NCBI GenBank assembly: GCA_033763315.1 | Contig: JANRKS010000019.1 | Span: 257,018-321,017, forward strand | Origin: Deltaproteobacteria bacterium | Lineage (GTDB): Bacteria; Myxococcota_A; Polyangia; Fen-1088 | Direction of reading: 5' to 3' | DNA length: 64,000 nt | In this document: positions 5,960-64,000 of the stretch, one piece after another | Position numbering within the stretch: position 1 is the first letter of the stretch | How the letters are laid out: each line of letters begins with the position of its first letter | The notes under the pieces: model-generated | What the model was told of the DNA's origin: nothing | The model's database searches: none | The model's input: the letters and a program-made list of their open reading frames with translations, nothing else | Translations under genes and position numbers: made by a program

Positions 5960-7005
5960 AAGCTCTGCGTGGGCACGTTGGGGCGCGCGCGCCGCAACAC
6001 CTGCTGTCCCACCCCGAAGCTCAATACGATTTCCGCATCCCTCACTTCGCCTTCGTAGCTGTCCAGCTGACGACGTCCGTCGTCGCACGGGCCCCCCTCA
6101 AGGATCTCGAAGCCATGCTCGGCGAACGCGAAGTGGCCCGTTCCTACGGTGCCGCGCACCTCGTAGCGAGTCACGGTGCGGAAATCCAAAGAGCCGTTGC
6201 ATCGGTAAAGACGCCCGTCCGTTGAGCGCTGCTCGACGGTCCGATCGTAAAAGCCCAAAACTTCGTTGCCCTCCTGCACGAGGTGCCATTCTTCTCGTTC
6301 ACGTTTGACGTCACCGTTGGGTAAATGCGCCTGCTGCTCCCAAACCCAGTGGCCTTGCACCTTCGGCGGCTTGCCATCGTTGTGGCCAAGGTTTGGGGGA
6401 GGACCGATGAGAGCGAGTGTGTTGCTCCGTGCGCCCAGCGCAAGCTCCGCCGTCGTGGGTGACGTGCGGGGTTTGGCGTTGTGACGCCTCACCATACGCT
6501 GCTCATGGTTGCCGTCGCTGACGAGCAAGGCGTCGCCAACCAACCGTGCGCGGTAACGCGCAGGATCGCGCGCCGGAGGTTGGCACGGCCCTTCGGCGTG
6601 AGGGGCGCGGCGCTCGGAAATGATCATGAGATCGCCTTGCCTGTGGCCGCTCACCTCGCTTGTGAGCCACGCGGTCAACTGCGAGCGCCCACTGCAAACA
6701 AAGGGTCGACCGTCGCGCGAGATCCGCGTGAGCTCCACGAACAGCACCCCTCGCACGCGCGCGCCCACTTGTTGCAGCCGCCACGTGTGGCGTTCAATCT
6801 CGCGATCCGGTGGGCCGTGGTCGTTGCTCATGTCGCGATCGAAAGCGCCTTCCCACGTTCCCGTGACGTCGCCTTCCGCGGCCGCCTCTGGGCGCTCCGA
6901 TGAGCGGGAATTTGCGCAGCCGCTGACCGCGCACAGGCAGATCACCCCCAGCCAGCTCGTTGTGCGGCTTAAGCGCAAATGGGTAATTTTACGCGTGTCC
7001 AACAT
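5956..7005 (-). CDS. Hypothetical lipoprotein
   Basis: Signal peptide with lipobox 'WLGVICLCAVSGC'. No recognisable domain. Start trimmed to the internal Met at the signal peptide. Confidence 0.5.
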   Translation of the reverse strand: MLDTRKITHLRLSRTTSWLGVICLCAVSGCANSRSSERPEAAAEGDVTGTWEGAFDRDMSNDHGPPDREIERHTWRLQQVGARVRGVLFVELTRISRDGRPFVCSGRSQLTAWLTSEVSGHRQGDLMIISERRAPHAEGPCQPPARDPARYRARLVGDALLVSDGNHEQRMVRRHNAKPRTSPTTAELALGARSNTLALIGPPPNLGHNDGKPPKVQGHWVWEQQAHLPNGDVKREREEWHLVQEGNEVLGFYDRTVEQRSTDGRLYRCNGSLDFRTVTRYEVRGTVGTGHFAFAEHGFEILEGGPCDDGRRQLDSYEGEVRDAEIVLSFGVGQQVLRRARPNVPTQSF

Positions 7006-7116
7006 TACATAACATCGGGAGCGTTCGCTGGAACATGGAGACAAGAAAAGCAGGCGCCACCATTTTGGTAGGACCTGCATCGCTAGGGTGGGTGCCGCAC
7101 GCGGCCGCGCCGCGGG

Positions 7117-7764
7117 TTAGGGGGGGGCGTTCGTTTGGCCCGCTGCTGCTTGGCGTGCCTTGTATTCCGCCTCTTCTTGGGGCCGGAACTTCTGCACCAG
7201 GCGATCCAACTCTGCCTTCACTTCGGGATCCTGCTCATACATGTAGACCGCATGCACCTTCGGCATCAGCACACGGTTCTCGGGGTCCATGGCCTCAACG
7301 GCACGAATTGCCTCAAGGCGCACCCGCTTGTCGGGGTCGGGGAACAGCACAGCGACGGCGTACCGGCCGCTTGGCGGGTTGTGCTTTTGAAGCCGGCGGA
7401 TCATCGCGAGTTTTCGTTCGGGATTGGTCTCGTCCATCAAGGCCCCGCCGAGGTGGTCAATCGGAATCGAATCGATGGAAGGTTGGGCTGGCGCAGGTGC
7501 CGTCACCGCTGGCTTCTCCACGGCCACCGGCGCTGTTGGTGGAGGAACCGGCGGTTCTTCAACAGCAGGTGGGGGTTCGGGCGGCCGTTCGACCACCAAG
7601 GGCGGCGGCTCTGAGACGACGCGGGGCTTTGGCGACAGCTGCTTGAAGATTAAGAACGCGCCGCCAGCGGCCGTCAGCGCCAAAAGCGCAATGGCGGCCT
7701 TGACCAAAGGAGAGGCTTGGGTGTCCGTGCGTGCCATTGGATGTGAAACCCTCCCGGTCACCAT
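7117..7764 (-). CDS. Membrane-anchored Pro-rich protein with C-terminal HEAT-like repeats
   Basis: N-terminal TM 'AAIALLALTAAGGAFLIF', then a PPxP-rich spacer, then a helical-repeat C-terminus 'VRLEAIRAVEAMDPENRV'. Confidence 0.5.
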   Translation of the reverse strand: MVTGRVSHPMARTDTQASPLVKAAIALLALTAAGGAFLIFKQLSPKPRVVSEPPPLVVERPPEPPPAVEEPPVPPPTAPVAVEKPAVTAPAPAQPSIDSIPIDHLGGALMDETNPERKLAMIRRLQKHNPPSGRYAVAVLFPDPDKRVRLEAIRAVEAMDPENRVLMPKVHAVYMYEQDPEVKAELDRLVQKFRPQEEAEYKARQAAAGQTNAPP

Positions 7765-7827
7765 CGACGGGTTGAGGCTGCTTCCTTAGGACCTCGCACG
7801 GGCCTGCGAACCTCGTAGACTGGCCGC

Positions 7828-8577
7828 GTGCCCCTCACACCCGAGACGTGGACCCCCGATAGCCGACCCACCCTGTTCGTGATTGGCGCCCGTAGTTTGG
7901 GCCGCGCGATCGCTTTACACTTTGGTGCGCAGGGGTGGCGTGTGGTCACCGGCGCCCGCACGGAGGCCGATGTGCAATCCGTGGCGGCCGCTGTGACGGC
8001 TGCGGGCGGGCAGGGCCACGGTGTGGTGTGCGACTTGGGTAAGCCCGAAACGCTGCGGGCGGTGGTGGCGGCAGAACCCAGAATTGACCTCTGTGTCGCG
8101 GCGCAGACGGCAGGTGGGCGCTTTGGCTCCGTCCCGTTGGTTGAGATGGCCGACGAGGATCTGCAGCGTGGTTTCGAGGGCTATGTTAAGGGCACCTGGA
8201 ACCTCTTGCGGGCCGTAGGGCCGCAGATGTTGGCCGCCGGCTCGGGCACGTTTCTTCAGATCGGGACCTCTTCAGGGGTGCGAACGAAGGCCGGTTACGG
8301 GGCGCTGGCGGCGGTTCAACACGGATTGCGCGCGCTTGTCCAGGTGGCCGCCAAGGAATGGCGCGACAAGGGCGTACACGTTGCCTATCTGCCCATCGAT
8401 GGGCAAATCGAGAATGAACGCAGCGGCGCCTGGATTGAAAAGAACGGCCTTCACCGCGCGATCCCGCAATCGGCCATCGTGCAGGCCTGCGCCTATTTGC
8501 ACAGCCAACCGCCGCGGGGCTGGACCCATGAGCTGGTGTTGCGTCCCCCGGGCACCGAGTGGACGGCGCCCACCTAA
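7828..8577 (+). CDS. NAD(P)-binding Rossmann-fold oxidoreductase, SDR-like (atypical)
   Basis: 'LFVIGARSLGRAIALHF' Gly-rich dinucleotide motif and SDR-like length. The catalytic YxxxK is not canonical. Confidence 0.5.
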   Translation: MPLTPETWTPDSRPTLFVIGARSLGRAIALHFGAQGWRVVTGARTEADVQSVAAAVTAAGGQGHGVVCDLGKPETLRAVVAAEPRIDLCVAAQTAGGRFGSVPLVEMADEDLQRGFEGYVKGTWNLLRAVGPQMLAAGSGTFLQIGTSSGVRTKAGYGALAAVQHGLRALVQVAAKEWRDKGVHVAYLPIDGQIENERSGAWIEKNGLHRAIPQSAIVQACAYLHSQPPRGWTHELVLRPPGTEWTAPT

Positions 8578-43095: not shown

Positions 43096-45207
43096 TTACG
43101 ACAGGTCGGTCTTGCGCGCGTCCCCGCGGGTCGGCGCTTGGTTGTGTGAAGCGGTTGGGCGTTGGCTGGTGTCGCTGGGAAGCGCGGCCGAAAACCGGCT
43201 TTCTTCTTCGTCGAACTCGCTGCGGAATAAACTTTGGATGAGCTGCGCGAGATTGACGGCGTGATTGCGCACGTGGGGCTCCACATCCGCCAAAAACGCC
43301 AGCGCGTTTGGATATCGCTGATCCGGCTGCACCATGAGGGCACGGCCCACGATGTGGTTCAGCGGTTCGGGCAGTGATGCGATTTGGGCAAGCATCGATT
43401 CGTCGGGGCCGGTGGCGGCCCGCACGAGCAGTTCGTAGGGGGTGCCACCATGATAAAGGGGCTGCCCTGCGGCGGCGTAATACATCACAAGGCCCAGCGA
43501 GAACAGGTCAGCGCGCGCATCGAGTGCCGTGCCGCGCGCTTGCTCGGGGCTCATGAAGCTGACATTGCCTTTGACCACGCCTTGCTCGGTTTGCGTCACC
43601 CGGCCTTCAGCTTTCACGATGCCGAAATCGAACAACTTCACCTCGCCGCCGGCCGAAATCAAAATGTTGCTTGGCGAAACATCGCGGTGAACCACGCCCA
43701 AAGGCCGGCCATCGTCGCCTCGGCGGTTGTGTGCGTAGTCGAGCGCCTTAAGCGTTTCTGCCATCACGTGCAAAATCACAGGCACGGACAAGGCGCGGCC
43801 TTGTGTTGCGATCGATTTGCTCACCGTGCGGCCCAGATCTCGACCGAGGATGTATTCGGTGGCTAAGTAATACTCGTCACCGACGCGGCCGAAATCAAAC
43901 ACGGGAATGATGTTGGAGTGCACCATCAACGAGCCCAGTTTTGCTTCGTCGATGAATTGCGCCACCACGCTGCTTTCGTTGGCCAGCTCGGGGCGCAACC
44001 GTTTGACCACGAACCGCCGGCGAAAGCCTTCGGCGCCAACCGTGATCGCCGTAAAAACTTGGGCCATGCCGCCTTCGCCCAACATGGACACGATGGTGTA
44101 GCGCCCAAACACACGTGAATTGCGTGCGGGAGGATCGAATGTGGCTGTGGCCGCGTACGGTGAGGGTGCGTCTTGTTCAAGCGCCACCGCGCTGCCTGAG
44201 GTGGGGGACATGCGGTTGCGTCCCATGCCTGGCGCCGTTGCGCTCATTGCCGGGGCTGGCGCTGTGGTTAAAGGCGGCGGTGTGCCCTCACTGGTCTGGG
44301 TGGCCACAGGCGCTTGCCCGCCGAGCGGCGCGCCTTGGCGGAACGCGAAGAAGATCGACAAAAACGCGAGCAAACCTGCACCAGCAAATAGGGCGCTCTT
44401 GTTGATGGTGGCCGCCTGCGCCGCCTCCGTCGCGCTGGCATGTGTGTTGGCGTAGACCCACATCCATAAGCCCGGCCCCAAGCTTCGCTTCGCGGCGGCC
44501 CATTCTCCGTGCGGGCTGGTCACAGGCGCCGCCAGCGTTTCCTGCCCCACAAGCCCGGCCATTTGCACCTGAGCCTGATCTGGCCCTGCGAGCGTCAGTG
44601 CCTTGGTGCCGTTCGACACCATCACAGCGCCACCCGCGCGGCGTGAAATCTGCTCAAGCGCGTCGTTGTTCAACGGCGCCGCCAAAATCAGCACGGCAGG
44701 CAAGCGCCGCGAGGGCAGGGAGATGCGCTCGCCCGCGGCCACCCATGCCTCGCCAGCGAAGACGAGGGTATCGGAGGCCAAGCCGCGGCTGCGCACCTTT
44801 TGAATCAAGGCGGACGCGTCCACCGTTTCGGCGCCCAAGACCAATTCGGGGCTGCGCTCGCTGAGCGACAGAACAACAACGCCAAAATCGCGGCGGAATG
44901 GCTCCCACCACACCTCGCGGTCAAACGCGTCTTTGAGTGTGGCGGTGATGCTGGAGGGGTCGTCGGCCTCGCGCAGGATCGACAAGATCTTCATGAGCTC
45001 GGGCCGGCTGCTGGCGGCGGCCACGCGTGGCTCAAGGGTGTGGAGCTGCGTGGCCAGCGCGTCTTCGAGTTTGGCCAAAGCTTGATCGGCCGCGCGCGAT
45101 GCGTCCGTCTGAGCCCGGGCGTCCCGCCGTAGATCGATGCTGGGCACCGAGGCCGCCGCGGCTCCCAGCGCTGCCAGCGCAACGAGCACGCCCAAGAATC
45201 GCTTCAC
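43096..45207 (-). CDS. Receptor-like Ser/Thr protein kinase: signal peptide, ~290-aa periplasmic domain, TM helix, C-terminal Hanks kinase domain
   Basis: Kinase motifs 'LGEGGMAQVF', 'VVKRL', 'HRDVSPSNILI', 'DFG' and 'SPEQ' lie in the C-terminal 300 aa. TM 'ALFAGAGLLAFLSIFFAF'. Confidence 0.8.
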   Translation of the reverse strand: MKRFLGVLVALAALGAAAASVPSIDLRRDARAQTDASRAADQALAKLEDALATQLHTLEPRVAAASSRPELMKILSILREADDPSSITATLKDAFDREVWWEPFRRDFGVVVLSLSERSPELVLGAETVDASALIQKVRSRGLASDTLVFAGEAWVAAGERISLPSRRLPAVLILAAPLNNDALEQISRRAGGAVMVSNGTKALTLAGPDQAQVQMAGLVGQETLAAPVTSPHGEWAAAKRSLGPGLWMWVYANTHASATEAAQAATINKSALFAGAGLLAFLSIFFAFRQGAPLGGQAPVATQTSEGTPPPLTTAPAPAMSATAPGMGRNRMSPTSGSAVALEQDAPSPYAATATFDPPARNSRVFGRYTIVSMLGEGGMAQVFTAITVGAEGFRRRFVVKRLRPELANESSVVAQFIDEAKLGSLMVHSNIIPVFDFGRVGDEYYLATEYILGRDLGRTVSKSIATQGRALSVPVILHVMAETLKALDYAHNRRGDDGRPLGVVHRDVSPSNILISAGGEVKLFDFGIVKAEGRVTQTEQGVVKGNVSFMSPEQARGTALDARADLFSLGLVMYYAAAGQPLYHGGTPYELLVRAATGPDESMLAQIASLPEPLNHIVGRALMVQPDQRYPNALAFLADVEPHVRNHAVNLAQLIQSLFRSEFDEEESRFSAALPSDTSQRPTASHNQAPTRGDARKTDLS

Positions 45208-54166: not shown

Positions 54167-54334
54167 CGCTAGTGCACCGCTCGCGAAGTCGAATCATGTT
54201 CGGCCGACAAGCTGAGCCACCGGCTGCGTTGTTCCTCCTCGCAATACGCCCGGTATTCCTCGTCGTCTCGCCTTGCCGCTGGCTCAGCTTGTCGGCCTCG
54301 GCATTGACCCGACTTCGCGAGCGGTGCGCTAGCG
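54167..54334. repeat. Long imperfect inverted repeat (~58-nt arms, ~50-nt spacer) between convergent genes
   Basis: Left arm CGCTAGTGCACCGCTCGCGAAGTCG...GGCCGACAAGCTGAGCCA. The right arm is its reverse complement with a few mismatches and a 2-nt indel. The right arm overlaps the last codons of the LacI gene. Confidence 0.7.
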
Positions 54335-55312
54335 GACGCGCAGCGTGGGCGACAGCGTGATTGATTGCGGCTTGCGCCCTGGCTGCTTGATGCGTTTGAG
54401 CAGCAAGCCGGCCGCTTCATCTCCCATTTGCCGTCCGGGCTGCGCCACAGTGGAAACAGCGGGCTCGAAGGCATCAAGCCAATCGTAATCGTCGGAACTC
54501 ATGACCTCGACGTCTTGGGGGCAACGCAGGTTGGCGGCTTTGATGGCCTTAAGAACCCCTGTCATCATCAAGAAATTGGCGGCGAACACAGCGGTCGGCC
54601 GATCGTTCGCGTTGGCGAGCCATGCCGACGTGATCGCCAAGGCTGACTCCATCGTCCAATCGCCTTCGCCGATCCAGTTTGCGGGAGCGTCGAATTTCTT
54701 CTTCTTCAAGGCGGCTTCCCAGCCCTCAATGCGATCCTCATTCGCCGACAAGCCCCGGGGGCCCACAACGATTGCCACCTTTTTGTGGCCTTTGCCCAGC
54801 AGATGCTCGACGGCCAAACGTGTGCCTTTCACGTTGTCTGCGAACACGGCATCCGCTTCCACGGTTCGCGGGCGTCGGCCCACAAACACGATGGCTTTTT
54901 TCATGGCCAGCAGCGGCTGCAGATCGCCTTCATCACCGGGGGCCGCAAACAGCAGCAACCCATCAACTTGCTTCGCGTTAAACACCTTGAGGTAATGCGA
55001 TTGTTGCTCGGGCTGATCGTGCGTGCTGCCAAGGATCAGCGCGTATCCTTCGGCGCGCAGCCGCTCTTCCACCGCATACACGACCTGCGCGTAAAATGGG
55101 TTGCTGATGTCTGGAATCAGCATGCCCACCGTCTTGGTTTGGCGGGTCTGCAGGCTGCGGGCCACTTCGTTGACGGTGTAATTGAGCTCTTTGACCGCGT
55201 CGAGAACACGCTTGGTCAGCTCGGGGCTCACATAGGCGGACCGATTGATCACGGAAGACACTGTGTAGGTCGAAACGCCTGCGTGTTTCGCTACGTCGTA
55301 GATGGTGGCCAT
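54329..55312 (-). CDS. LacI-family transcriptional regulator
   Basis: HTH 'ATIYDVAKHAGVSTYTVSSVIN' and a periplasmic-binding-protein-like sugar-binding core. Confidence 0.85.
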   Translation of the reverse strand: MATIYDVAKHAGVSTYTVSSVINRSAYVSPELTKRVLDAVKELNYTVNEVARSLQTRQTKTVGMLIPDISNPFYAQVVYAVEERLRAEGYALILGSTHDQPEQQSHYLKVFNAKQVDGLLLFAAPGDEGDLQPLLAMKKAIVFVGRRPRTVEADAVFADNVKGTRLAVEHLLGKGHKKVAIVVGPRGLSANEDRIEGWEAALKKKKFDAPANWIGEGDWTMESALAITSAWLANANDRPTAVFAANFLMMTGVLKAIKAANLRCPQDVEVMSSDDYDWLDAFEPAVSTVAQPGRQMGDEAAGLLLKRIKQPGRKPQSITLSPTLRVR

Positions 55313-55381
55313 AGATGCGCCGGCATTATACGCGACCAAAATGCGGCGCAGGGCTGCATGTTGCAGTAGCCTGCGCCTCGC

Positions 55382-56446
55382 GTGCTATTGCCCAGGCTCA
55401 ACCTTTTGACCCACGTGCCTTTGGCGCCTTTGACCACGCTGCGTTTGGGCGGCGAGGCGGCCTATTTCCTGGCGGCGCACACGATTGCGGACGTGCAGGG
55501 GGCGGTCGCGTGGGCCCAAAACAAGGGGGTGCCGCTGTTGGTGCTGGGCGGCGGCTCGAATGTTGTGATGCCCGATGCTGGGTGGGATGGCCTGGTTCTA
55601 CACATGCAATTGCGCGGGCAAAATGTGTCTAACGAGGGCGCCCTGATTCATGTGGTGGCGGCGGCCGGTGAGCCATGGGACGCCTTCGTGCAAAGCGCCA
55701 CGCGCAACAAGTGGGCTGGCGTTGAGTGTTTGGCCGGCATTCCGGGACTTGTGGGTTCAACGCCGATCCAAAACGTCGGCGCCTATGGGCAGGACGTGTC
55801 CGAAACCATCGCACGCGTGCGTGTCCTTGAGCGCGCCACAGGTGCGCTTCACTGGTTGACGAAAGATGAACTGCAGTTCTCTTACCGAGACAGCGTTTTG
55901 CGGCGAGAGCTTTCGCGGTTCATCGTGGTTGAGGTGGCGTTTGATTTGCGCGCGGGTGGGGCGCCTTCAGTGCGCTACGCAGAGTTGCAACACGCCTTGG
56001 CGGCCACGGCAAACCCCACGCTGCTAGATGTGCGCGCGCAGGTGTTGGCGCTGCGACGAAAGAAATCCATGGTGCTGGATGCCGCCGATCCCAACAGCCA
56101 AAGCGTGGGTTCGTTCTTCACCAACCCACTCGTGGACGTACAAATGGCGGCCGAGGTTGCTCGCATCGCTTCGGCTTCGGGCCTTGCTCACGTGCCGCAG
56201 TGGCCGCAGCCTGATGGCCGCGTGAAATTGGCTGCGGGGTGGCTGATCGAGAACGCCGGCTTCTCGCGCGGTCTGCGCCGCGGGGCCGTGGGTTTGTCAT
56301 CCGCGCACGCGCTGGCTTTGGTTCACTTCGGCGGCGGAACCAGCAACGAGCTTTTGGCCCTGGCGCGGCAAGTGCGGGACGGCGTGAAGGCGAAATTTGG
56401 CGTCACGCTGCAGCCCGAACCGATCCTCATCGGTGCTTCGCTTTAG
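55382..56446 (+). CDS. murB: UDP-N-acetylenolpyruvoylglucosamine reductase
   Basis: FAD-binding 'LLVLGGGSNVV' and MurB C-terminal domain. Confidence 0.85.
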   Translation: MLLPRLNLLTHVPLAPLTTLRLGGEAAYFLAAHTIADVQGAVAWAQNKGVPLLVLGGGSNVVMPDAGWDGLVLHMQLRGQNVSNEGALIHVVAAAGEPWDAFVQSATRNKWAGVECLAGIPGLVGSTPIQNVGAYGQDVSETIARVRVLERATGALHWLTKDELQFSYRDSVLRRELSRFIVVEVAFDLRAGGAPSVRYAELQHALAATANPTLLDVRAQVLALRRKKSMVLDAADPNSQSVGSFFTNPLVDVQMAAEVARIASASGLAHVPQWPQPDGRVKLAAGWLIENAGFSRGLRRGAVGLSSAHALALVHFGGGTSNELLALARQVRDGVKAKFGVTLQPEPILIGASL

Positions 56447-58686
56447 AGTGAGGCGGGAACGAGCTCGGCGCCCGTCACGTTGTCCCATGCGGCCGTTGAT
56501 CTGGGTGGCAGGGTGGCGTGAATCACCTTGCCGTTGCGTAAGGTGATGTCGCGCGTGCCGCCCGCGCCCGAGTGAACCCACAACACGCCATTGCCACTGG
56601 CCAAGACGTCGTCGGTGTTTTCGTAGACGTGCGCGCCGGCTTGCTGGAACAGCGCGCGCCATGTGCGGCTGTTTGTGATCGGCAGCGTGCTGAACCACGT
56701 CGCGCCGCTGTCGGGCCGCGCCTTCTTCACGAAGCCCACCTCGCCGGTGTCAGCCAAGGTTCCCAATGTTGTGGCTTGGCCGTCTTTGACGATGGGGAAA
56801 GGAGACAGCGGCGTTTTGTGCGGAATTCCGTAGGTTTCGCCAAACGCTTCTTGTGTGACTTTGATCGTGGCGTTGCCGCGCGCTGCACCGGGCTCGATGT
56901 GAATGCCCGTGATGTCGCTGATGAGTTGCATGTCGTTGCGTTCGCCGTCTGAATAACCAGCTGCGTAGCTAAACACCACGTGCCGGCCCTGCGCCGCGAC
57001 TCGCGTCTTGATGAGCGCGCGATGCTCCGGCGTCAAGCGCCAGCCATTCGCAAACACCACAACCTTGTAGCGATCCAGCGGCACCAACGGCAGGTCGTCC
57101 ATGAATACGTCGTCCGTCATGCTGCCGCTTTTGTGAACGGCGTTCGACACCGCGTCCAGCGCCGTTTCTGACACAGGCGTCCACTTGGCCGCCACGTGGT
57201 AATACGTGGCCACATCCCAGACCATCAACACATCGGCTTGCGGCGCAAGCGGCTTGCTGACGCGGTCATCGAACAGCCGCTTGAGCGTGTGTGCTTGCCG
57301 GGTGTAGTCAGGGTGTGCCCACCAGCCCGTCTGCTGGTTGGGACCGAAATCGTAAAACCACATGCCCATGCCGCGCACCAAGGGACCCAATGTGTTGCGA
57401 CGAATGATAGCCACGTCATCGGCGCGTTGCTCAGGCGTTGGCTCATCGAACGGGTGGCGCATGCTGGTGGCTTGGTCCATTTCATCCAGAACCAGCTTGC
57501 CGTGCAGCAGCGCCGATTCCGAAACCGCGCGTGATTGTCCTGAGCCGCCCATGGCATGCGCAGGTCCGTAATAAGACTGCGGGGCCGCCAGGAAATCCAC
57601 GTCTGGCGAGCGCAGCACGCGGTCCACGGCCAAGTGGCCGCCCGTGGTTTGGCGCGAGAACGTCATGAAGTAATAGCCATAGAAATTGCCAACCGCGATC
57701 GGGCGGGGCCACAGTTTCTTCACGAGCCCATCGAAATAGATCACGTCATCGGCCACAACGCTGTGCTGGGCCTCGAAGTAGTCCATCACGTATCGTTCTT
57801 TTTGCGGATCACGGAATACGCCGTCGCTGGTTTGATTGCGAGCGGCTGAGCCCGGCACGCGCGCGCTGGCGAAGGTGACGCTGGGATCCGCCCACGCGGC
57901 CTGCAAGGCGGCGTCGGTGCGATATTTGTTTTGCAGCCAGCCGCGAAAGTAAGCTGTCATAGGCGCGCTGGTGTCGGGGTCGTGGCTGATGAAACTCCAG
58001 TTGTGCCATTCGTGCGAAACGCCGTCGCATACGTTCACAAAGCCCAAGGCATTGCCTTGGGGCATCGCCGCCAATTCCTTGAAGAACCTTTGCAGCACGG
58101 AGGTGGTTTCTTGGCGCCACCGCACAGAAGCCAGGCTGTGCACCTTACCTGCGTTCAAATCGTCAGCGTCCGTGGTGTTGCGTTGCAATCCCCACGGTTG
58201 TTTGTGTGGATGCGCGTCCGTGTCGGCATAAGCGACCGTTTCGTCGGGGTGTGCTTCGTTCCACCAAAACGGCGCGTTGATGTGCAGCCGCAACAACAGC
58301 GTGGCTCCCGGTGCAGCCCGCAGAGCGCCAGCAAACTGCCGCTGCACGAGATCCATATCTAGGCTGCCATCCGGCTTCCAAATGTCGTTCAACCACAAGC
58401 TGAACTGGATGATGTGAAAGCCCGCCTTGGCAAAGTTGGCGATGTTCCACTGCGGAACTTCTTCCCACGTCCATTGTCCGCCCACGCTGTCGGTGATCGT
58501 ATAGATCATCGGCGTGGAAGGGCGCCCGTTGATGAAGATGGTGGGGCGATCGCCCAGCGGTTTGATCTGAACCGTCACGGGTGTGATGGCTGCGGTGTGA
58601 TGTGCAGCACTGGCCGGGGGATGGCAGCCCATGGCCACGGCCGCCGCGAACAACAAGCACAAACGACTGAGCATCAGGGACGACAT
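56443..58686 (-). CDS. Secreted TIM-barrel glycoside hydrolase (beta-galactosidase/GH42-like), family uncertain
   Basis: Signal 'LCLLFAAAVAMGC'. A long domain with 'WNEAHPDE' and 'NVCDGVSHEWHNW' that resembles GH family proteins. Adjacent to the LacI regulator. Confidence 0.4.
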   Translation of the reverse strand: MSSLMLSRLCLLFAAAVAMGCHPPASAAHHTAAITPVTVQIKPLGDRPTIFINGRPSTPMIYTITDSVGGQWTWEEVPQWNIANFAKAGFHIIQFSLWLNDIWKPDGSLDMDLVQRQFAGALRAAPGATLLLRLHINAPFWWNEAHPDETVAYADTDAHPHKQPWGLQRNTTDADDLNAGKVHSLASVRWRQETTSVLQRFFKELAAMPQGNALGFVNVCDGVSHEWHNWSFISHDPDTSAPMTAYFRGWLQNKYRTDAALQAAWADPSVTFASARVPGSAARNQTSDGVFRDPQKERYVMDYFEAQHSVVADDVIYFDGLVKKLWPRPIAVGNFYGYYFMTFSRQTTGGHLAVDRVLRSPDVDFLAAPQSYYGPAHAMGGSGQSRAVSESALLHGKLVLDEMDQATSMRHPFDEPTPEQRADDVAIIRRNTLGPLVRGMGMWFYDFGPNQQTGWWAHPDYTRQAHTLKRLFDDRVSKPLAPQADVLMVWDVATYYHVAAKWTPVSETALDAVSNAVHKSGSMTDDVFMDDLPLVPLDRYKVVVFANGWRLTPEHRALIKTRVAAQGRHVVFSYAAGYSDGERNDMQLISDITGIHIEPGAARGNATIKVTQEAFGETYGIPHKTPLSPFPIVKDGQATTLGTLADTGEVGFVKKARPDSGATWFSTLPITNSRTWRALFQQAGAHVYENTDDVLASGNGVLWVHSGAGGTRDITLRNGKVIHATLPPRSTAAWDNVTGAELVPASL

Positions 58687-58785
58687 CGGGCACGCATTAT
58701 GGCCGCTTGGTATCGCCCTGCCACGCTTGCTTGCTGTATGGGCGAATTGCACGCGAGCCGCGGGAAAAAATGCCTAATCGATGCG

Positions 58786-60426
58786 TTAGGGCGACTGGCG
58801 GGCACGCAACGGGATGCGGAACGCTAGCGGCTGGCCTTGGGCCCCGAATTGCGTGCTGCGCGCGATTTTCACGAGGCAGGCGCCAAGCGGCGTGGGGTTC
58901 AAACTTTCTGGCACCACCTTTGCCGTTTGCACGGCACCGCTGGGATCCGTTGAGAACGCCACCGCAATCTCTGGCACGCCTTGCACCTCCGCGGCATAGG
59001 TCTCGAAACATTTCTCGATGTTCGCCTGCCGCTTGCGCAAGGTGCGCGTCAGGGCCTCAGGGTCGGGTCCCGTGCGCTTGGGCGCGGGGGGACGAGGCTT
59101 CGCCACCACCGCTGTGGGGGTGGGTGGCGTGGGGGCGGGCGGGGGAGGCGCAGGCTCAGCAGGTTTTGCCTCAGTCTCAGGTTGCTTTTGCACCACAACA
59201 AAGGCGGGCTGTGTCGTAGCCGCGGGGGCGCTTCGCCTTTGCCACACAAATCCCAGGGCCCCGGCCGCCAATATGGCACCCGCGCCAATGCCTGCGAACA
59301 CCAGCTTTGAAGCGGGTGCACGCTGCGGCTTGGGCTCGTACCTCGGCGTCTCGCGCGTGGCCGCCGAGGTTGATTCCGTCATGTCGGACTGAATGAGCGC
59401 GCGCAATTCTGTGGTGTTGGCGGAGCGCCAAGCGCTATCAAGCACAGACAGTGGTTCAAGCCCCAACCTGGCAGGCATATCGCCCACAAAGTCCCTTTGG
59501 ATGTCCGCCACCAAACGCGCGTGCGCGGCGTCTTCGCCCTGGCGTCGGCACCATTTCAAGGCCTCGGCAAACTCAGCGGCTGAAGCGAATCGATTTTGCG
59601 GATCTTTCGCGAGAGCGCGCGCGATGACTGCATCGAGTTCCCGTCGTAGATCAGACCGGATGTGGCTGATGGGTGCGGGCTCGAACTCAGCGATGCGCTT
59701 CACGGTCTGCATCGAATTTTCGCCCTCGAACGGGTTGAAGCCCGCCAAGATCTTGTACAGCACCACGCCGGCGGCAAACACATCGCTTTGCGCGGAAGCT
59801 TGGCCGCCGCGAAAAATCTCCGGCGACGTGTAGGCCGCTTTGCCTTTGAATTCGCCTTCACGCGTGCGGTACTCACCGGCGTCGTCAGAGAAACGCGCGA
59901 TGCCAAAATCCAGAAGTTTTACGTGCCCTTCGGTGTCCAGCAATACGTTGCCTGGCGAAACGTCACGGTGAACCACTTCCAAGGCGTGTCCGTCTGAACG
60001 AACGAAGGTGTGAGCGTAGTGCAGCGCCTCAAGCACGCGGATCATCACCTGCAGCGCCACGTCGCCCGTGATGAGGCCGCCCGTCTCGCGCAGGAACCTG
60101 TGCCAAAGCCCAAGATCGTAACCACGCACGAACTCAAGCACCATCACGTACGCGCCATCCTCTTCACCGAAGTCGAGGATGTTCACGATGCCTGGGTGCT
60201 GCAGTTCAGAAAGAATGCGAGCCTCGCGCACAAACAAACCGGCCATGCGCGGGTTGGCCACCAAGTGCGGCAGGATGCGCTTAATCACCACGGGTCGTGC
60301 AAAGCCCGCGGCGCCTTCGGTGCGGCCAAGGTAAAGCACACCCATGCCACCGTGGGCCAGCACGCGCACCACGCGGTAGCGCCCTAGAACGGCGCGGCCC
60401 AACATCGGGTCAGTGAGCGCCTTCAA
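58786..60426 (-). CDS. Ser/Thr protein kinase: N-terminal Hanks kinase, TM helix, Pro-rich periplasmic linker, AgmX/PglI (TonB-C-like) C-terminal domain
   Basis: 'LAHGGMGVLYLG', 'VVIKRI', 'HRDVSPGNVLL', 'DFGIA'. TM 'FAGIGAGAILAAGALGFVW'. The C-terminal 'CFETYAAEVQGV...GACLVKIARSTQF' is alignable to the C-terminus of the gene at 13509. Confidence 0.8.
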   Translation of the reverse strand: MKALTDPMLGRAVLGRYRVVRVLAHGGMGVLYLGRTEGAAGFARPVVIKRILPHLVANPRMAGLFVREARILSELQHPGIVNILDFGEEDGAYVMVLEFVRGYDLGLWHRFLRETGGLITGDVALQVMIRVLEALHYAHTFVRSDGHALEVVHRDVSPGNVLLDTEGHVKLLDFGIARFSDDAGEYRTREGEFKGKAAYTSPEIFRGGQASAQSDVFAAGVVLYKILAGFNPFEGENSMQTVKRIAEFEPAPISHIRSDLRRELDAVIARALAKDPQNRFASAAEFAEALKWCRRQGEDAAHARLVADIQRDFVGDMPARLGLEPLSVLDSAWRSANTTELRALIQSDMTESTSAATRETPRYEPKPQRAPASKLVFAGIGAGAILAAGALGFVWQRRSAPAATTQPAFVVVQKQPETEAKPAEPAPPPPAPTPPTPTAVVAKPRPPAPKRTGPDPEALTRTLRKRQANIEKCFETYAAEVQGVPEIAVAFSTDPSGAVQTAKVVPESLNPTPLGACLVKIARSTQFGAQGQPLAFRIPLRARQSP

Positions 60427-62351
60427 GGCATTCTCCCTGCGGATCGGCGCAAGTAATAGTGAATGCCGCGTTCTTTGTGCTCGAAGCGAATCGCAAGCGA
60501 TCGGCGCTCAGCGGCTGAATGCACCTGACCCGCAAAACGAAGGTTTGGATCCAGGGGCAGGGGCGAGCCTGCCGCGGTCACCACCCAACCTGGCAGCGCA
60601 GAGCCCGCCACTTCCACCGTGTCGCCCGCCTTGAATTGTTTGTTTTGAGGCGCTTTGACCACCGCCGCCGGTGCCGCGTTGTCGAATCGAATCTTGACGG
60701 TGGTCTCAGGTGAGGCCGCAGAGGGGGCGCCCACGACTTTGAAAACCATCGAGTGGTTGCCTTCGGGCAGCGATGCAGATTTGAACACGTATTTGGGCTT
60801 GTTTGTTGTGAAGGTTTTCGTCTTGTCGCCCGTTGTCACGGTCACTTGGTATGACGCCGCTTTCGGTGCGCGCGGCCACGACAGCCGCACCTCAGGCAGC
60901 AGGTTTTGATAGAGGATTGTGTACTTGCGGCCATCCGTATCCACCAAGGTTGCGGGGGCAAGTCTGGGCAAATCGGCCGTGCCTGGATCGCGGATGATCT
61001 GCACGCTGCCTGTGACATCGGGACTGCCCGGACAAGCGACGGCGTAGCGGTGAACACCGGGCTGCATGTTGGCAATCGCGGCGAGGTCAGCGGTGCGCGG
61101 CAAAATGAAACGGCTGGGACCCACGCGCAAGCGGCCGCCTTTGGTGCAGGTGCTCGGAAACTTCACTTGCACGGCTGTGGGTGGTGATGGGTCATGCACC
61201 ACAAATGATTCGCCGGCCTCCACCAAAAGATCGGCCACATCGGGGCCGCGCCCGTCGACGCGCATGCGGCCTTGCGGATCCAGTGCCAACGTTTCGCCGG
61301 CCATAATTTCGTCGCTGCCACTGCCGGTTTGCACGGCCGCCATGCCTTCGCGCACGCGCACTTGCGTGCCCTTGGTTTTGTCCACCGCGACGTCAGCCAC
61401 GCTATCATTGGCGCGAACGGCGATGCTGCCGCCCGGCACAACGATCACCGTCTCGCCCGAAGCGCGGTCCACAGACACGCGTCCCACGTCGGCCTCCACT
61501 AAGCCTCGGTTGCCACCCACGCGAAAGACGCCGCGGCCATGCACGGTGGCCGCTTCATCGCCGCGCGCAACGTGCACGGTGGCCAACGCGGGCACATCGA
61601 ATGTCCCCCCCGCGGCTACGGCATGTTTGCCAGGATCCAATGCGGCCCAGGCGTCGGTTTCGGTGGCGCGGTATTTTACGCGCTTGCCCCGCACCGTGGC
61701 GGCAATGTCACCCGTGGGTGCGGGCGCCAAAGGTGCAGGGGCAGCCACGGGCGGTGCCTCTTTGGCCACATCCACCAGTCGCTCGATTTGCGCTGTTTCA
61801 AGATCAACTTGAATGCGCTGGCCCGCCAGGACTTTGATGGGCTCCCCGTTTTCGGGAGTGAAGTTCGCTATGCCCACGGTCACTTCGTAGCGGGTCCTTT
61901 TGCCTTCCTGCGAGACGATCATGCGTCCGCCAGGGTCCAAAACGGCCAGGCCCACGCTTGATCCCAAACGCAGGGGCGCCGCGCCCGCTTCGATCCACAC
62001 TTGGCCCACCTCGACCTCGAAGTTGTGTTGGTCGGGCAACGCCGCCAAGAACCGCAGCACAGCCTTCTCTTGCACCGCCAACGCAGAGCCATCTGAAAGG
62101 GTCAGCCGCGCGCCGGCACCCGCCGAGGTTTTGATTCCGTCGCCCAGTCGAAACGTGTCGCCGCTCTGAGCGGGCTTCCAACCCTGTGGCTTGGCGGCCA
62201 AATCACGCGTCACCTCACCCGTTGTGGAAGCCAAGGTGGCCAGCACACCGGTGTTCTTGTCGCAACCTTTGCATGCGGTCACGCACATGCAGGCCACCAG
62301 CGCAAAGGCCGTCCAAGGTTTTCGCAAAAACCAAGCGGCCGCTGTGTTCAC
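60423..62351 (-). CDS. FecR-domain lipoprotein
   Basis: Lipobox 'VACMCVTAC'. FecR-like 'FRLGDGIKTSAGAGARLTLSDGSALAVQEKAVLRF'. 4-bp overlaps on both sides. Confidence 0.65.
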   Translation of the reverse strand: MNTAAAWFLRKPWTAFALVACMCVTACKGCDKNTGVLATLASTTGEVTRDLAAKPQGWKPAQSGDTFRLGDGIKTSAGAGARLTLSDGSALAVQEKAVLRFLAALPDQHNFEVEVGQVWIEAGAAPLRLGSSVGLAVLDPGGRMIVSQEGKRTRYEVTVGIANFTPENGEPIKVLAGQRIQVDLETAQIERLVDVAKEAPPVAAPAPLAPAPTGDIAATVRGKRVKYRATETDAWAALDPGKHAVAAGGTFDVPALATVHVARGDEAATVHGRGVFRVGGNRGLVEADVGRVSVDRASGETVIVVPGGSIAVRANDSVADVAVDKTKGTQVRVREGMAAVQTGSGSDEIMAGETLALDPQGRMRVDGRGPDVADLLVEAGESFVVHDPSPPTAVQVKFPSTCTKGGRLRVGPSRFILPRTADLAAIANMQPGVHRYAVACPGSPDVTGSVQIIRDPGTADLPRLAPATLVDTDGRKYTILYQNLLPEVRLSWPRAPKAASYQVTVTTGDKTKTFTTNKPKYVFKSASLPEGNHSMVFKVVGAPSAASPETTVKIRFDNAAPAAVVKAPQNKQFKAGDTVEVAGSALPGWVVTAAGSPLPLDPNLRFAGQVHSAAERRSLAIRFEHKERGIHYYLRRSAGRMP

Positions 62352-63688
62352 TTGTTGCCTCGCTCACGTCGCAAGTCTGCGTTGAGCACGGTCACGCCAT
62401 TTTCTTCAATGCGCACTTCACGCGTTTGCGTGCGGAACCCTTTGGTGACGATCTGCACTTGGTAAGCGCCCGGTGGCACGTCCACCGCAAATGCACCTTC
62501 CTCGTCTGTTTGCGCTTCGATGCCGATCGGCTCCACGCGCACCGTGGCGCGCAAGCCTTGGCCTTTCCAGGATCGAATCAAGCCGCGCAACTGTCCTGCG
62601 GGCGTCTCAGGCGCCGCTGGCTCTTGCACCACAGTCTTGGTTTCTTCGGTTTTTGCGGCCGTTTCGGGCTTAGGTGCCTCAGGCTCGGACGTTTTTGAGG
62701 AGTTGGTGGCAAAGTCTTTAGGCGCGTCTGTGGCTGCGCTTCCAAATGTATAAGCCAAGCCAAACCGCCCGCCGAAGCGAGGTTCGATCGGTACAAGCTT
62801 ATCCGCCGCGCCAAGCTCGGGCCGCGCGCTTGGCGACGTTTCAAGCAACGCAAAGACTTGCCAATGGTTGTTGATGTTGTGGCGTACACCAGCCGTGGCC
62901 CGCATCGGCGATTGCGTAAGGCTTGGTCCCCCCAGCAGCAGATCGGCGGAGATTTCCGCCAACAAAGCTGTGGCGTTCAATTGATACGCCAAACCAACGC
63001 CCAACAACGCCGCGTTGTAGTCCGACAGGCCCAAGGCCACGCGGTCCCCAGGCCGGGTCAGCGCCAAATTGGGAGCGGCTTTTGCGCTTCGGTCCAAGCG
63101 AAAGCCGCCAGCGCTGGCGAAGGTGAGGTTGCCACTTTGAAAGGCGAACCCAAGTTTCAGATCCACCACCGCGGCGTCGAAGGCCAGCGAAGGTGCTTCG
63201 CGGCCCGGCACACGCACGCCCAGCTCGCCGCTCCACGCACGCGCGCCACTCCAGCGCCCATAGCGCGCCGTCAGCGCAGGCTCACCGTTGTAGCTGGTGT
63301 CCGCGCCTTGCGCGTCACTCGGGTGTCCGTCGCGTCTGCCATCAAGGCGCAGCCCAACGTCCAAGCCCGTCACCGGCGTGAACCCCAGCGCCACGCTGCC
63401 CACGAGGCGGTGGTGCGAGCCGGCGGCCGCGCCTTGCGCTTCAGTGAGTCCGTAGCCCGTTCCCGCAGCGGCGGCCCAAGTGCCTCCCGTGCGTAAACCA
63501 GGCAGCCCCAAACGCACAATGCCCGTCAACGCCGATTCTGTGTTTCCCGCTGTCGTCACGGTCGACGGGGCCTCAACGGAGGCTTGCGCAGCCACAACAT
63601 CCACGCCTTCTGCGGCGAACGCGGGGGCGGACAGCATGGCCACCAAAGCCACACCACATGCACTGCCTTGCGACGTTGCGATCTTCAT
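62348..63688 (-). CDS. Putative outer-membrane beta-barrel protein with a C-terminal carboxypeptidase-regulatory-like (CarbPepD_reg) domain
   Basis: Signal 'VALVAMLSAPAFAAEG'. Amphipathic strands 'LGVGLAYQLN', 'RFGLAYTF'. C-terminal 'RATVRVEPIGIEAQTDEEGAFAVDVPPGAYQVQIVTKGF'. Confidence 0.5.
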   Translation of the reverse strand: MKIATSQGSACGVALVAMLSAPAFAAEGVDVVAAQASVEAPSTVTTAGNTESALTGIVRLGLPGLRTGGTWAAAAGTGYGLTEAQGAAAGSHHRLVGSVALGFTPVTGLDVGLRLDGRRDGHPSDAQGADTSYNGEPALTARYGRWSGARAWSGELGVRVPGREAPSLAFDAAVVDLKLGFAFQSGNLTFASAGGFRLDRSAKAAPNLALTRPGDRVALGLSDYNAALLGVGLAYQLNATALLAEISADLLLGGPSLTQSPMRATAGVRHNINNHWQVFALLETSPSARPELGAADKLVPIEPRFGGRFGLAYTFGSAATDAPKDFATNSSKTSEPEAPKPETAAKTEETKTVVQEPAAPETPAGQLRGLIRSWKGQGLRATVRVEPIGIEAQTDEEGAFAVDVPPGAYQVQIVTKGFRTQTREVRIEENGVTVLNADLRRERGNK

Positions 63689-63852
63689 TTGGTGCCCGCT
63701 ATCCCTATGCGACGAGGGGGACCCAGCCCCCTGGAATTTCCTCGTCAGTTTGCGCCAAAGCTTGAACCACGTGTGACCTGGGTGGACTGGGACGCGTCGT
63801 CCGCCTGCGGGTGGGTAGGCACAGCGGGGATATCGTGATAGTTCGACCCACC

Positions 63853-64000
63853 ATGCTTTGCCTCGCGCTTCGATCGTTTCTTTGGGCCTCGTTGCTGGCA
63901 CCCTTCATCACCGGCCAGCCTCAGGCCGCGAGCGCGGGGGCCGTTGCCGCGTTTGCGCCGGCCGAGGCGGCGCCCGGTACCTTTTGCACCGCCGCGCGGC
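63853..64000 (+). CDS. 5' fragment of a secreted protein (runs off the window end)
   Basis: ATG followed by 'MLCLALRSFLWASLLAPFITGQPQAASAGA', a signal-peptide-like sequence. There is no stop before the window end. Confidence 0.3.
   Translation, partial: MLCLALRSFLWASLLAPFITGQPQAASAGAVAAFAPAEAAPGTFCTAAR

Follow-up and report, generated by a model that had tools for sequence, protein, structure and literature searches.

A FecR-like protein, a 12-stranded barrel and a Hanks kinase with a TonB-like tail: a conserved gene trio of Polyangia and candidate envelope-spanning signalling module

Hanks kinases number in the hundreds in myxobacteria, and the inputs for almost all of them are unknown. In the cell-surface signalling systems FecA-FecR-FecI and PupB-PupR-PupI, the outer-membrane partner is a 22-stranded barrel with a plug and an STN domain, and the inner-membrane partner combines a periplasmic FecR-type domain with an anti-sigma domain and a DUF4974/STN-like subdomain, with an ECF sigma factor as output. 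Genes for secreted FecR-domain proteins lacking an anti-sigma domain adjoin those of CHASE2 histidine kinases and cyclases (PMC5192318; PMC9239204), in COG4254-type operons that pair a CHASE2 sensor with a histidine kinase or adenylate cyclase output. The TonB-CTD-like domains of GltG (PglI) and GltJ (AgmX), from the Agl-Glt gliding machinery of Myxococcus xanthus, are predicted periplasmic docking modules binding GltD and GltF, the latter via an added beta-strand (PMC11761067). Bitopic Hanks kinases such as PknB/Stk1 span the membrane with one helix, between an N-terminal cytoplasmic kinase and PASTA domains that serve for sensing or docking outside the cytoplasm, and in SusC transporters the CarboxypepD_reg domain is a periplasmic N-terminal extension adjoining the TonB box (PMC7782687).

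Within the window (the whole 64,000 nt stretch of DNA analysed here), three consecutive minus-strand genes, designated A, B and C, combine parts known from three of these systems, namely a FecR fold, a CarboxypepD_reg domain as in SusC and a TonB-CTD-like tail as in the gliding machinery (Table 1). The trio shares with FecIRA a periplasmic FecR-type domain in the inner-membrane partner (B), but B has a duplicated FecR domain and three Ig-like domains in place of the anti-sigma domain and the DUF4974/STN-like subdomain, the barrel of A has 12 strands and neither plug nor STN domain, no ECF sigma factor is linked, and the TonB-like domain forms part of a Hanks kinase (C), with no sign of ExbBD coupling. 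Compared with the TonB family, the membrane helix of C is variable, is located after the kinase domain and has no conserved ExbBD-coupling motif. COG4254-type operons resemble the trio in linking an anti-sigma-less FecR protein to a non-sigma membrane signalling enzyme, but lack both a TonB-like tail and a 12-stranded barrel bearing CarboxypepD_reg. In the sequence of its tail C resembles GltG, GltJ and their Nfs paralogues, but a kinase takes the place of their cytoplasmic FHA or ZnR-GYF domains, and its candidate partners are the barrel and the FecR-like protein rather than GltD and GltF. In domain order C follows PknB/Stk1, from which it differs by the TonB-CTD-like domain replacing PASTA, by an HRDxSPxN loop and by translational coupling to two envelope proteins. 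Unlike the SusC extension, the CarboxypepD_reg domain of A is C-terminal, behind a 40-aa disordered linker, on a small plug-less barrel. Strand number and signal peptide of A fit the 12-stranded barrels FapF, COG4313, KdgM/NanC and the autotransporter translocators. Like the earlier note on this DNA, which was not aware of the arrangement being described as a system, we found no description of it in the searchable literature, nor anything relevant on a kinase with a TonB_C domain or on a FecR-kinase link in myxobacteria.

Table 1. Features of the A-B-C locus in window coordinates
Feature	Position	Strand	Basis
Gene A, 446-aa outer-membrane protein: signal peptide, 12-stranded barrel, linker, CarboxypepD_reg domain	62348..63688	-	
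A signal peptide, aa 1-25 (MKIATS...APAFA)	63614..63688	-	translation; low-confidence N-terminal helix in model
A N-terminal motif, aa 51-60, family consensus (A/G)LPGxxR(V/I)G	63509..63538	-	conserved in 55 homologues
A 12-stranded beta-barrel, aa 70-315	62744..63481	-	confident structure model
A disordered Pro/Glu/Lys/Thr-rich linker, aa 321-360	62609..62728	-	pLDDT <50
A C-terminal CarboxypepD_reg/transthyretin-like domain, aa 365-439	62372..62596	-	periplasmic side predicted
A stop/B start overlap, GTGA	62348..62351	-	read from sequence
Gene B, 642-aa membrane-anchored periplasmic protein, two FecR-like and three Ig-like domains	60423..62351	-	34 homologues of ~640 aa; AF2
B N-terminal anchor, aa 1-27, hydrophobic helix with lipobox-like LVAC or VTAC|K	62271..62351	-	translation, orthologue comparison
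B FecR-like domain 1, aa 38-192	61776..62240	-	
B FecR-like domain 2, aa 216-366	61254..61706	-	hhalign against domain 1
B three Ig/FN3-like domains, aa 375-636	60444..61229	-	
B stop/C start overlap, TTGA	60423..60426	-	read from sequence; GGGAGA 5 nt upstream
Gene C, 546-aa bitopic Hanks-type kinase with TonB-CTD-like tail	58786..60426	-	
C kinase domain, aa 17-281	59584..60378	-	Pkinase 130 bits
C transmembrane helix, aa 375-395	59242..59304	-	hydropathy scan
C Pro-rich periplasmic linker, aa 396-451	59074..59241	-	translation
C periplasmic C-terminal domain, aa 452-546, GltG/GltJ (PglI/AgmX) TonB-CTD-like type	58789..59073	-	sequence profiles

Neighbouring genes of the trio overlap by 4 bp, as the earlier note had stated, and the overlaps were preserved at both junctions in related loci: the A/B overlap in 49 of about 70, and the overlapping B/C start in 49 of about 72 (33 ATG, 11 GTG, 5 TTG). 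Shine-Dalgarno-like sequences (GAGG and GGGAGA) were located 5-6 nt upstream of the B and C starts. The open reading frame of A spans 62348..63901 on the minus strand, with the actual start at the ATG at 63688, from which the product has the same sequence as the NCBI-annotated protein P0035. The TTG start codon of C is followed 21 nt downstream by an alternative ATG, which was chosen by one gene caller. Only unrelated divergent genes were present 5′ of A, and a promoter and terminator scan of 58500-64000 gave sites no commoner than in shuffled sequence, a result neutral on co-transcription. The 769-aa gene downstream (56443-58752) was considered as a fourth member, and was rejected because it has no family match and is missing from 84 of 84 related loci.

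The A2 pattern scan of species-representative genomes gave 162 stretches encoding relatives of B, of which 80 loci were kept, all from Polyangia/Myxococcota-type MAGs. The proposal that the trio is a conserved unit held in this set: A-B-C were collinear in 62 of 81 non-redundant loci from different Polyangia genomes, and in others the genes were rearranged while remaining clustered, with the order C-A-B in four Kofleriaceae loci and, in six more, A or C inverted and at most a few kb away. A was not adjacent in four loci and C was missing in one. The kinase gene followed B in nearly all loci, making B-C the tightest coupling. The flanks of the trio were variable, with no other gene family common to more than 7 of the 81 loci. 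Within the same 81 loci there were no linked genes for an ECF sigma factor, ExbBD, TolQR or AglRQS, and no conserved phosphatase, FHA or substrate gene beside the trio; likewise, Glt or Agl genes were not found near it, and no cargo, amyloid, enzyme or transporter gene was conserved beside it.

Gene A was confirmed as the beta-barrel protein with a CarboxypepD_reg domain that had been proposed for this position. In the structure model, 12 antiparallel strands close a barrel, preceded by a signal peptide, and Pfam detected CarboxypepD_reg at aa 367-439 (39 bits, cut-off 32.3), with no match to STN, plug or TonB_dep_Rec in either the Pfam search or the model. The best structural matches of the barrel were channels and secretion barrels, a similarity at fold level only (7-16% identity). 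The lumen and loops contain conserved charged residues, with i, i+2 spacing on the strands. Within the N-terminal motif, L54 is nearly invariant among the 55 homologues, and the motif could speculatively be seen as a docking or plug strand; however, it was modelled with a pLDDT of about 96 and packed with the barrel, and may therefore belong permanently to the barrel instead of being a docking strand that can be released. The length of the periplasmic arm of A showed no covariation with that of the kinase linker (rho -0.16, p 0.30).

The second protein, B, had been described as a lipoprotein with a FecR-type periplasmic domain. It really does have the FecR/PupR fold, as a tandem pair, with domain 1 aligning to domain 2 by hhalign at a probability of 93.9% (E 1.6e-7), and the AF2 model is all-beta (pLDDT 84.9). 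The Ig/FN3-like region contains the invariant Cys402 and Cys440 and the motifs DTDGRxYTVLYQNLLP and FDNAAP. The lipoprotein assignment applies to part of the family, as a lipobox Cys, in many cases followed by Lys at +2, occurs in about two-thirds of the orthologues, while the remainder have a Cys-free, uncleaved signal anchor. Only about 10-25 residues precede the anchor, and there is no cytoplasmic anti-sigma domain.

The C-terminal domain of C had been called AgmX/PglI-like and TonB_C-like, and both resemblances were recovered with library profiles run on orthologues from related loci and with a profile search of the PDB. NF033768 (AgmX/PglI C-terminal domain) matched 34/34 tail orthologues (best E 5.7e-13), with the window copy scoring 31.2 bits as whole protein and 36.2 bits as isolated tail (E 5e-9), below the curated NCBI cut-off of 40 bits. 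The tonB_Cterm model (TIGR01352) matched 31/34 (best E 1e-5), and gave 16.7 bits for the window copy against a cut-off of 27.1. In the PDB search, 10 of the 12 hits at E<=10 were TonB C-terminal domains (best E 0.0018), as were the only two hits below 0.1. Matches to GltG were obtained with 31/34 orthologues and to GltJ with 19/34, and on sequence these two proteins appear to be the closest relatives of the tail. Two Cys residues are invariant in the domain and both are present in the window copy. Among 582 clusters of relatives the domain was C-terminal in every case, and a word-indexed protein database queried with the C-terminal 211 aa of C returned just 2 matches.

The kinase domain of C contains the VVIK, HRD and DFG motifs and the catalytic-loop Asn, and the loop reads HRDVSPGN, with Ser replacing the canonical Lys. 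A motif census of 73 family members found HRDxSPxN in nearly all, together with conservation of the VxxK Lys, the HRD Asp, the catalytic-loop Asn and DFG across the family. Kinase activity could thus be low or atypical, judging from the Lys to Ser replacement. Identity in the kinase domain was 42-88% in most loci and 32% in two Kofleriaceae loci. The membrane helix varies in sequence among orthologues, with no SxxxH-type or TonB-like His motif, and the linker ranges from 38 to 100 aa.

Starting from the established gene structure, domain folds, linkage and conserved start/stop overlaps, we infer the localisation, physical contacts, direction of signalling, stimulus and substrates of a module that would function as follows. 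A would reside in the outer membrane, with its flexible linker suspending the CarboxypepD_reg domain in the periplasm, while B would be fixed to the inner membrane, through either a lipid or a signal anchor, its FecR/PupR-type and Ig-like domains reaching into the periplasm. C would be a single-pass inner-membrane kinase, with the Pro-rich linker taking the TonB-CTD-like domain across the periplasm, where beta-strand augmentation of the kind known from TonB and GltG would probably let it dock passively and so tether the kinase to A, B or both. Events at the outer membrane, for instance binding of a ligand or an altered condition of the barrel or envelope, would alter this periplasmic assembly. 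Kinase activity would shift as a result, and with it the degree to which targets in the cytoplasm, whose genes lie elsewhere, are phosphorylated. That the trio works somewhat like a trans-envelope signalling route ending in a kinase is a reasonable inference from the analysis, and we give an about even chance to the full proposal that the trio is an undescribed envelope-spanning signalling module of Polyangia with the TonB-like tail as passive docking domain.

The earlier note had described the locus as a FecA/FecR-like module, and of this label the FecR/PupR fold of B stands; the classification of the trio as a FecA/FecR module is not supported, since A lacks the 22 strands, the plug and the STN domain of a TonB-dependent transducer and is thus not one, B is without an anti-sigma domain, and neither ECF sigma factor nor ExbBD is linked. 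The same observations, together with the missing TonB_dep_Rec match and the lack of linked TolQR in all 81 loci, make it very unlikely that the kinase stands in for TonB as well as for the sigma/anti-sigma pair in a genuine TonB-energised system, with the tail pulling on the outer-membrane protein by proton-motive force. This would accommodate the fold of B, the Pro-rich linker and TonB-CTD-like tail of the kinase, the conserved strand-like motif near the mature N-terminus of A and the adjoining of CarboxypepD_reg and TonB boxes in SusC transporters, but the kinase membrane helix is unconserved and without a TonB-type motif, which argues against TonB-type energisation, and the unlinked ExbBD, TolQR and AglRQS genes were counted in favour of a passive tail. 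The view that C is a pseudokinase or scaffold, and the module a structural tether between outer and inner membrane of Tol-Pal or Glt type instead of a phosphorylation pathway, draws on the family-wide Ser in the catalytic loop, on the similarity of the tail to structural motility proteins and on the lack of linked substrate genes. We consider it improbable, as the remaining catalytic residues are all conserved and the entire kinase domain shows strong purifying conservation, suggesting that it functions; moreover, RIO kinases, which are atypical yet active, have Ser at the same position.

Two further readings concern the role of A. It may chiefly be a transport or secretion channel comparable to 12-stranded FapF, COG4313, KdgM and NanC, with B as periplasmic partner and the kinase regulating or scaffolding the channel. 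This is unlikely in our view, although it has some appeal: the top structural matches of A are of this kind, the charged residues at i, i+2 are consistent with lining of the lumen and suggest a specific pore or binding site, and Ig-like domains as found in B are frequent in periplasmic adaptors. The resemblance is, however, in fold only, the neighbourhood contains no conserved cargo, amyloid, enzyme or transporter genes, and the tightest coupling, that of B with C, better fits a sensor-kinase pair. Alternatively, A could be similar to the inverse autotransporters, with the linker threading back through the barrel and one or more CarboxypepD_reg domains displayed on the cell surface as sensor or adhesin. 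Unlike intimin and invasin, A has no Pfam match to IAT_beta or Big_1, and the model places the linker outside the barrel (at low confidence) and packs the N-terminal segment with the barrel (at high confidence), while a periplasmic site would agree with the SusC precedent, so that surface display has only a slim chance of being correct.

If the proposed signalling module is real, it would parallel cell-surface signalling with a kinase as its output, would put the GltG/GltJ-type tail to a second use, outside motility, and would supply a concrete route, amenable to testing, by which the outer membrane feeds into a kinase. Should the predicted contacts exist, trans-envelope signalling in Gram-negative bacteria would extend beyond sigma/anti-sigma outputs, the GltG/GltJ-type tail would serve generally for docking in the periplasm, and the enigmatic CarboxypepD_reg domain would acquire a candidate partner. 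The conserved Lys to Ser replacement poses a defined question in kinase biochemistry. More tentatively, and with somewhat less than an even chance, we suggest that the barrel and the FecR-type protein control the Hanks kinase directly via the TonB-CTD-like docking tail, without sigma factor or proton-motive motor, a route that would be widespread in Polyangia and duplicated in some genomes. At least two MAGs carried two B-relative loci (L033/L082 and L031/L048, with L033 lacking an adjacent A), as expected of a sensor family.

Three minus-strand genes, encoding a barrel protein (A), a FecR-like periplasmic protein (B) and a Hanks kinase with a tail resembling the TonB C-terminal domain (CTD) (C), clearly form a functional unit. 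A pattern scan in which each species was represented by a single genome yielded 162 stretches encoding B relatives; the 80 loci kept were from Polyangiaceae, Sandaracinaceae, Labilithrix, Kofleriaceae and unclassified Myxococcota-type MAGs. The genes were collinear (A-B-C) in 62 of 81 non-redundant loci, while four loci from Kofleriaceae and related MAGs (L073, L078, L080 and L083) have the order C-A-B, with all three genes staying on one strand. The remaining loci had A or C inverted, yet within a few kb (6/81), an adjacent A absent (4/81) or C absent (1/81), or were cut by contig ends (4/81). The word-indexed database contained a small, uniform set of B homologues (34 proteins of ~640 aa). 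Three distant homologues on long contigs each have a CarboxypepD_reg gene on one side and a kinase gene on the other, and the rest of their surroundings differs. All-against-all clustering of flanking ORFs gave only antisense shadow ORFs as families in more than seven loci beyond A, B and C, and no sigma factor, ExbBD/TolQR, phosphatase or FHA gene as part of the unit. At least two MAGs have two loci of B relatives (L033/L082 in mag.101f, L031/L048 in Sandaracinaceae GL139_UP_metabinner_22_sub), pointing to an expansion of the module by paralogy; of these loci, L033 has no A gene next to it. In related locus L001, gene A is broken into pieces of 195 and 288 aa (6531-8001), by either a frameshift or an assembly error.

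Features of the trio and of neighbouring genes in the window
Feature	Coordinates	Strand	Remarks
Gene A	62348..63901	minus	ORF reading
Start of A	63688		ATG
Gene B	60423..62351	minus	ORF reading
Gene C	58786..60426	minus	ORF reading
A stop/B start overlap	62348-62351	minus	GTGA, B start codon GTG
B stop/C start overlap	60423-60426	minus	TTGA, C start codon TTG
Catalytic loop of C	59920-59943		HRDVSPGN
Predicted lipoprotein, 769 aa	56443-58752	minus	likely start ~58686 (...AVAMGC)
Weak sigma-70-like site	58724-58696		just upstream of the 769-aa gene
Second Hanks-type kinase domain	43294-44130	minus	~15 kb from C
ORF, 571 aa	52450-54165		no family match
LacI-family regulator	54329-55339	minus	near trio
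MurB (UDP-N-acetylenolpyruvoylglucosamine reductase)	55382-56446	plus	near trio
Divergent gene	63853-64000	plus	starts ~165 nt upstream of A

The three ORFs follow in a row, and a Shine-Dalgarno-like GAGG or GGGAGA precedes each overlapping start. For C, the overlapping TTG is favoured over an ATG 21 nt downstream, picked by one gene caller, because this ATG has no ribosome-binding site ahead of it, the T-D-P residues upstream of it align with conserved orthologue residues, and an in-frame C start overlaps the B stop in 49 of ~72 related loci. Protein A (446 aa) begins with the signal peptide MKIATS...APAFA; its sequence is the same as that of P0035, an NCBI-annotated protein of a 'Deltaproteobacteria bacterium' MAG.

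The AlphaFold2 model of A, built on an alignment of 55 homologues (mean pLDDT 84.5, most 10-residue blocks ≥90 across aa 51-320), has twelve long strands within aa 70-315; the linker behind them (aa 321-360) is disordered and leads to an Ig-like domain (aa 365-439). The sole Pfam match is a C-terminal CarboxypepD_reg domain (aa 367-439, 39 bits, cut-off 32.3), present in two copies in most orthologues and in one in the lineage of the window. Model and Pfam match thus bear out a beta-barrel with a CarboxypepD_reg domain, as the earlier note had proposed; A is not a FecA-type protein, since a 22-strand barrel, a plug and an STN domain are all missing. Conserved charged residues with i, i+2 spacing are located on the strands (R118/D120/H122, R197/D199, E245/D249), and in the window protein the motif (A/G)LPGxxR(V/I)G follows the site of signal-peptide cleavage by ~25 residues.

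The FecR fold of B is real, with the Pfam FecR match barely above the cut-off (24.8 vs 24 bits). The AlphaFold2 model (alignment of 33 sequences, pLDDT 84.9) is all-beta, with two ~150-residue domains (aa 38-192 and 216-366) and three Ig-like domains. B is without a cytoplasmic domain, with just 10-25 residues ahead of the hydrophobic segment. This segment has a lipobox-like Cys in about two-thirds of orthologues, often with Lys next to it, and about one-third have no Cys there; from these sequences we infer an inner-membrane anchor, of the lipobox-Cys or Cys-less kind. An orthologue of ~490 aa in L084 (6860-8329) lacks the second FecR-like domain and has no adjacent A gene.

At its N-terminus, protein C carries the kinase domain (Pkinase, 130 bits). 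A post-kinase segment leads from there to a single hydrophobic helix (aa 375-395), beyond which come a linker rich in Pro and a C-terminal domain of 95 aa. Against NCBIfam NF033768, the AgmX/PglI C-terminal domain, this tail scored 31-36 bits (E 5e-9), short of the curated 40-bit cut-off. Among 34 aligned tails from orthologues, NF033768 matched all 34, TIGR01352 (tonB_Cterm) and the GltG model 31 each, and the GltJ model 19. A profile search of the whole PDB gave 12 matches at E≤10, ten of them TonB CTDs and two weak Hsp70/DnaK; the only two below E 0.1 were TonB CTDs (best E 0.0018, H. pylori TonB 5lw8/6sly). Among 1.84 billion representatives, a full HMMER scan placed the tail in 582 clusters, always C-terminal, and the ten matches sampled were all kinases (one truncated at the N-terminus, the other nine 565-668 aa long). 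By these searches the tail is TonB-CTD-like, and in sequence it is closest to GltG and GltJ, gliding-machinery proteins of M. xanthus also known as PglI and AgmX (PMC3169522), whose TonB-CTD-like domains are predicted to dock to periplasmic GltD and, via an added beta-strand, GltF (PMC11761067).

The earlier note had claimed a FecA/FecR-like cell-surface-signalling module with a Ser/Thr kinase as output, a reading that holds only in part. Its FecR fold and TonB-CTD-like tail stand, while tests for a TonB-dependent transducer with STN domain, for an anti-sigma domain and for an ECF sigma factor all came out negative; with a TonB-CTD-like tail, a barrel and a conserved trio all found, the underlying observation holds. 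The best-supported model, to which we give an even chance, is a passive envelope-spanning sensor complex, and beyond folds and linkage we infer its workings. A would be a barrel in the outer membrane that extends an arm into the periplasm, B a FecR-type co-sensor anchored in the inner membrane, and C a receptor kinase whose GltG/GltJ-type tail may dock onto A, B or both, with phosphorylation of substrates encoded at unlinked sites as the putative output. A true TonB-energised system is an unlikely alternative; nothing pointed to energisation, and the membrane helix of C showed no conservation and no TonB-like His motif among orthologues.

Other alternatives concern the role of A and the activity of C. 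A may be a transport or secretion channel under kinase regulation, and its structural matches were FapF (20.1), a COG4313 channel (19.9), KdgM (19.3), NanC (18.4) and the NalP translocator (18.1). The C-terminal domain of A could also be displayed on the surface in the manner of an inverse autotransporter; short turns (aa 107-108, 148-149, 186-187, 238-239 and 272-275) alternate with long loops in A, which puts both ends of the barrel on the periplasmic side, as is usual, so that the CarboxypepD_reg domain would most simply be periplasmic. Finally, C may be a pseudokinase scaffold: nearly all of 73 family members have the catalytic loop HRD(V/I)SPxN, in which Ser replaces the canonical Lys of HRDxKxxN, as also in the window, while they retain the other catalytic residues (beta-3 Lys, HRD, Asn and DFG). 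In L003, an additional, unrelated kinase adjoining the trio shows the canonical loop, HRDLKPAN.

The trio would combine trans-envelope signalling with a receptor Hanks kinase. By logic its closest system is FecARI/PupBRI, FecR-CHASE2 operons are the closest precedent for FecR domains with non-sigma outputs, and the SusC N-terminal extension is the closest case of a CarboxypepD_reg domain lying next to a TonB-binding site. No published account of the trio, or of any kinase carrying a TonB-like tail, was found in a literature coverage that was incomplete, where absence is not proof.

The 769-aa protein encoded directly downstream of C had no Pfam or NCBIfam match, and was rejected as part of the unit, as its gene is missing from every related locus. 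The second Hanks-type kinase domain in the window shares 34.5% identity with C. The divergent gene encodes a signal-peptide-like N-terminus (MLCLALRSFLWASLLAPFITG...), and its counterpart in L085, from the same organism, is a 600-aa 3-keto-disaccharide hydrolase/AP_endonuc_2 protein.
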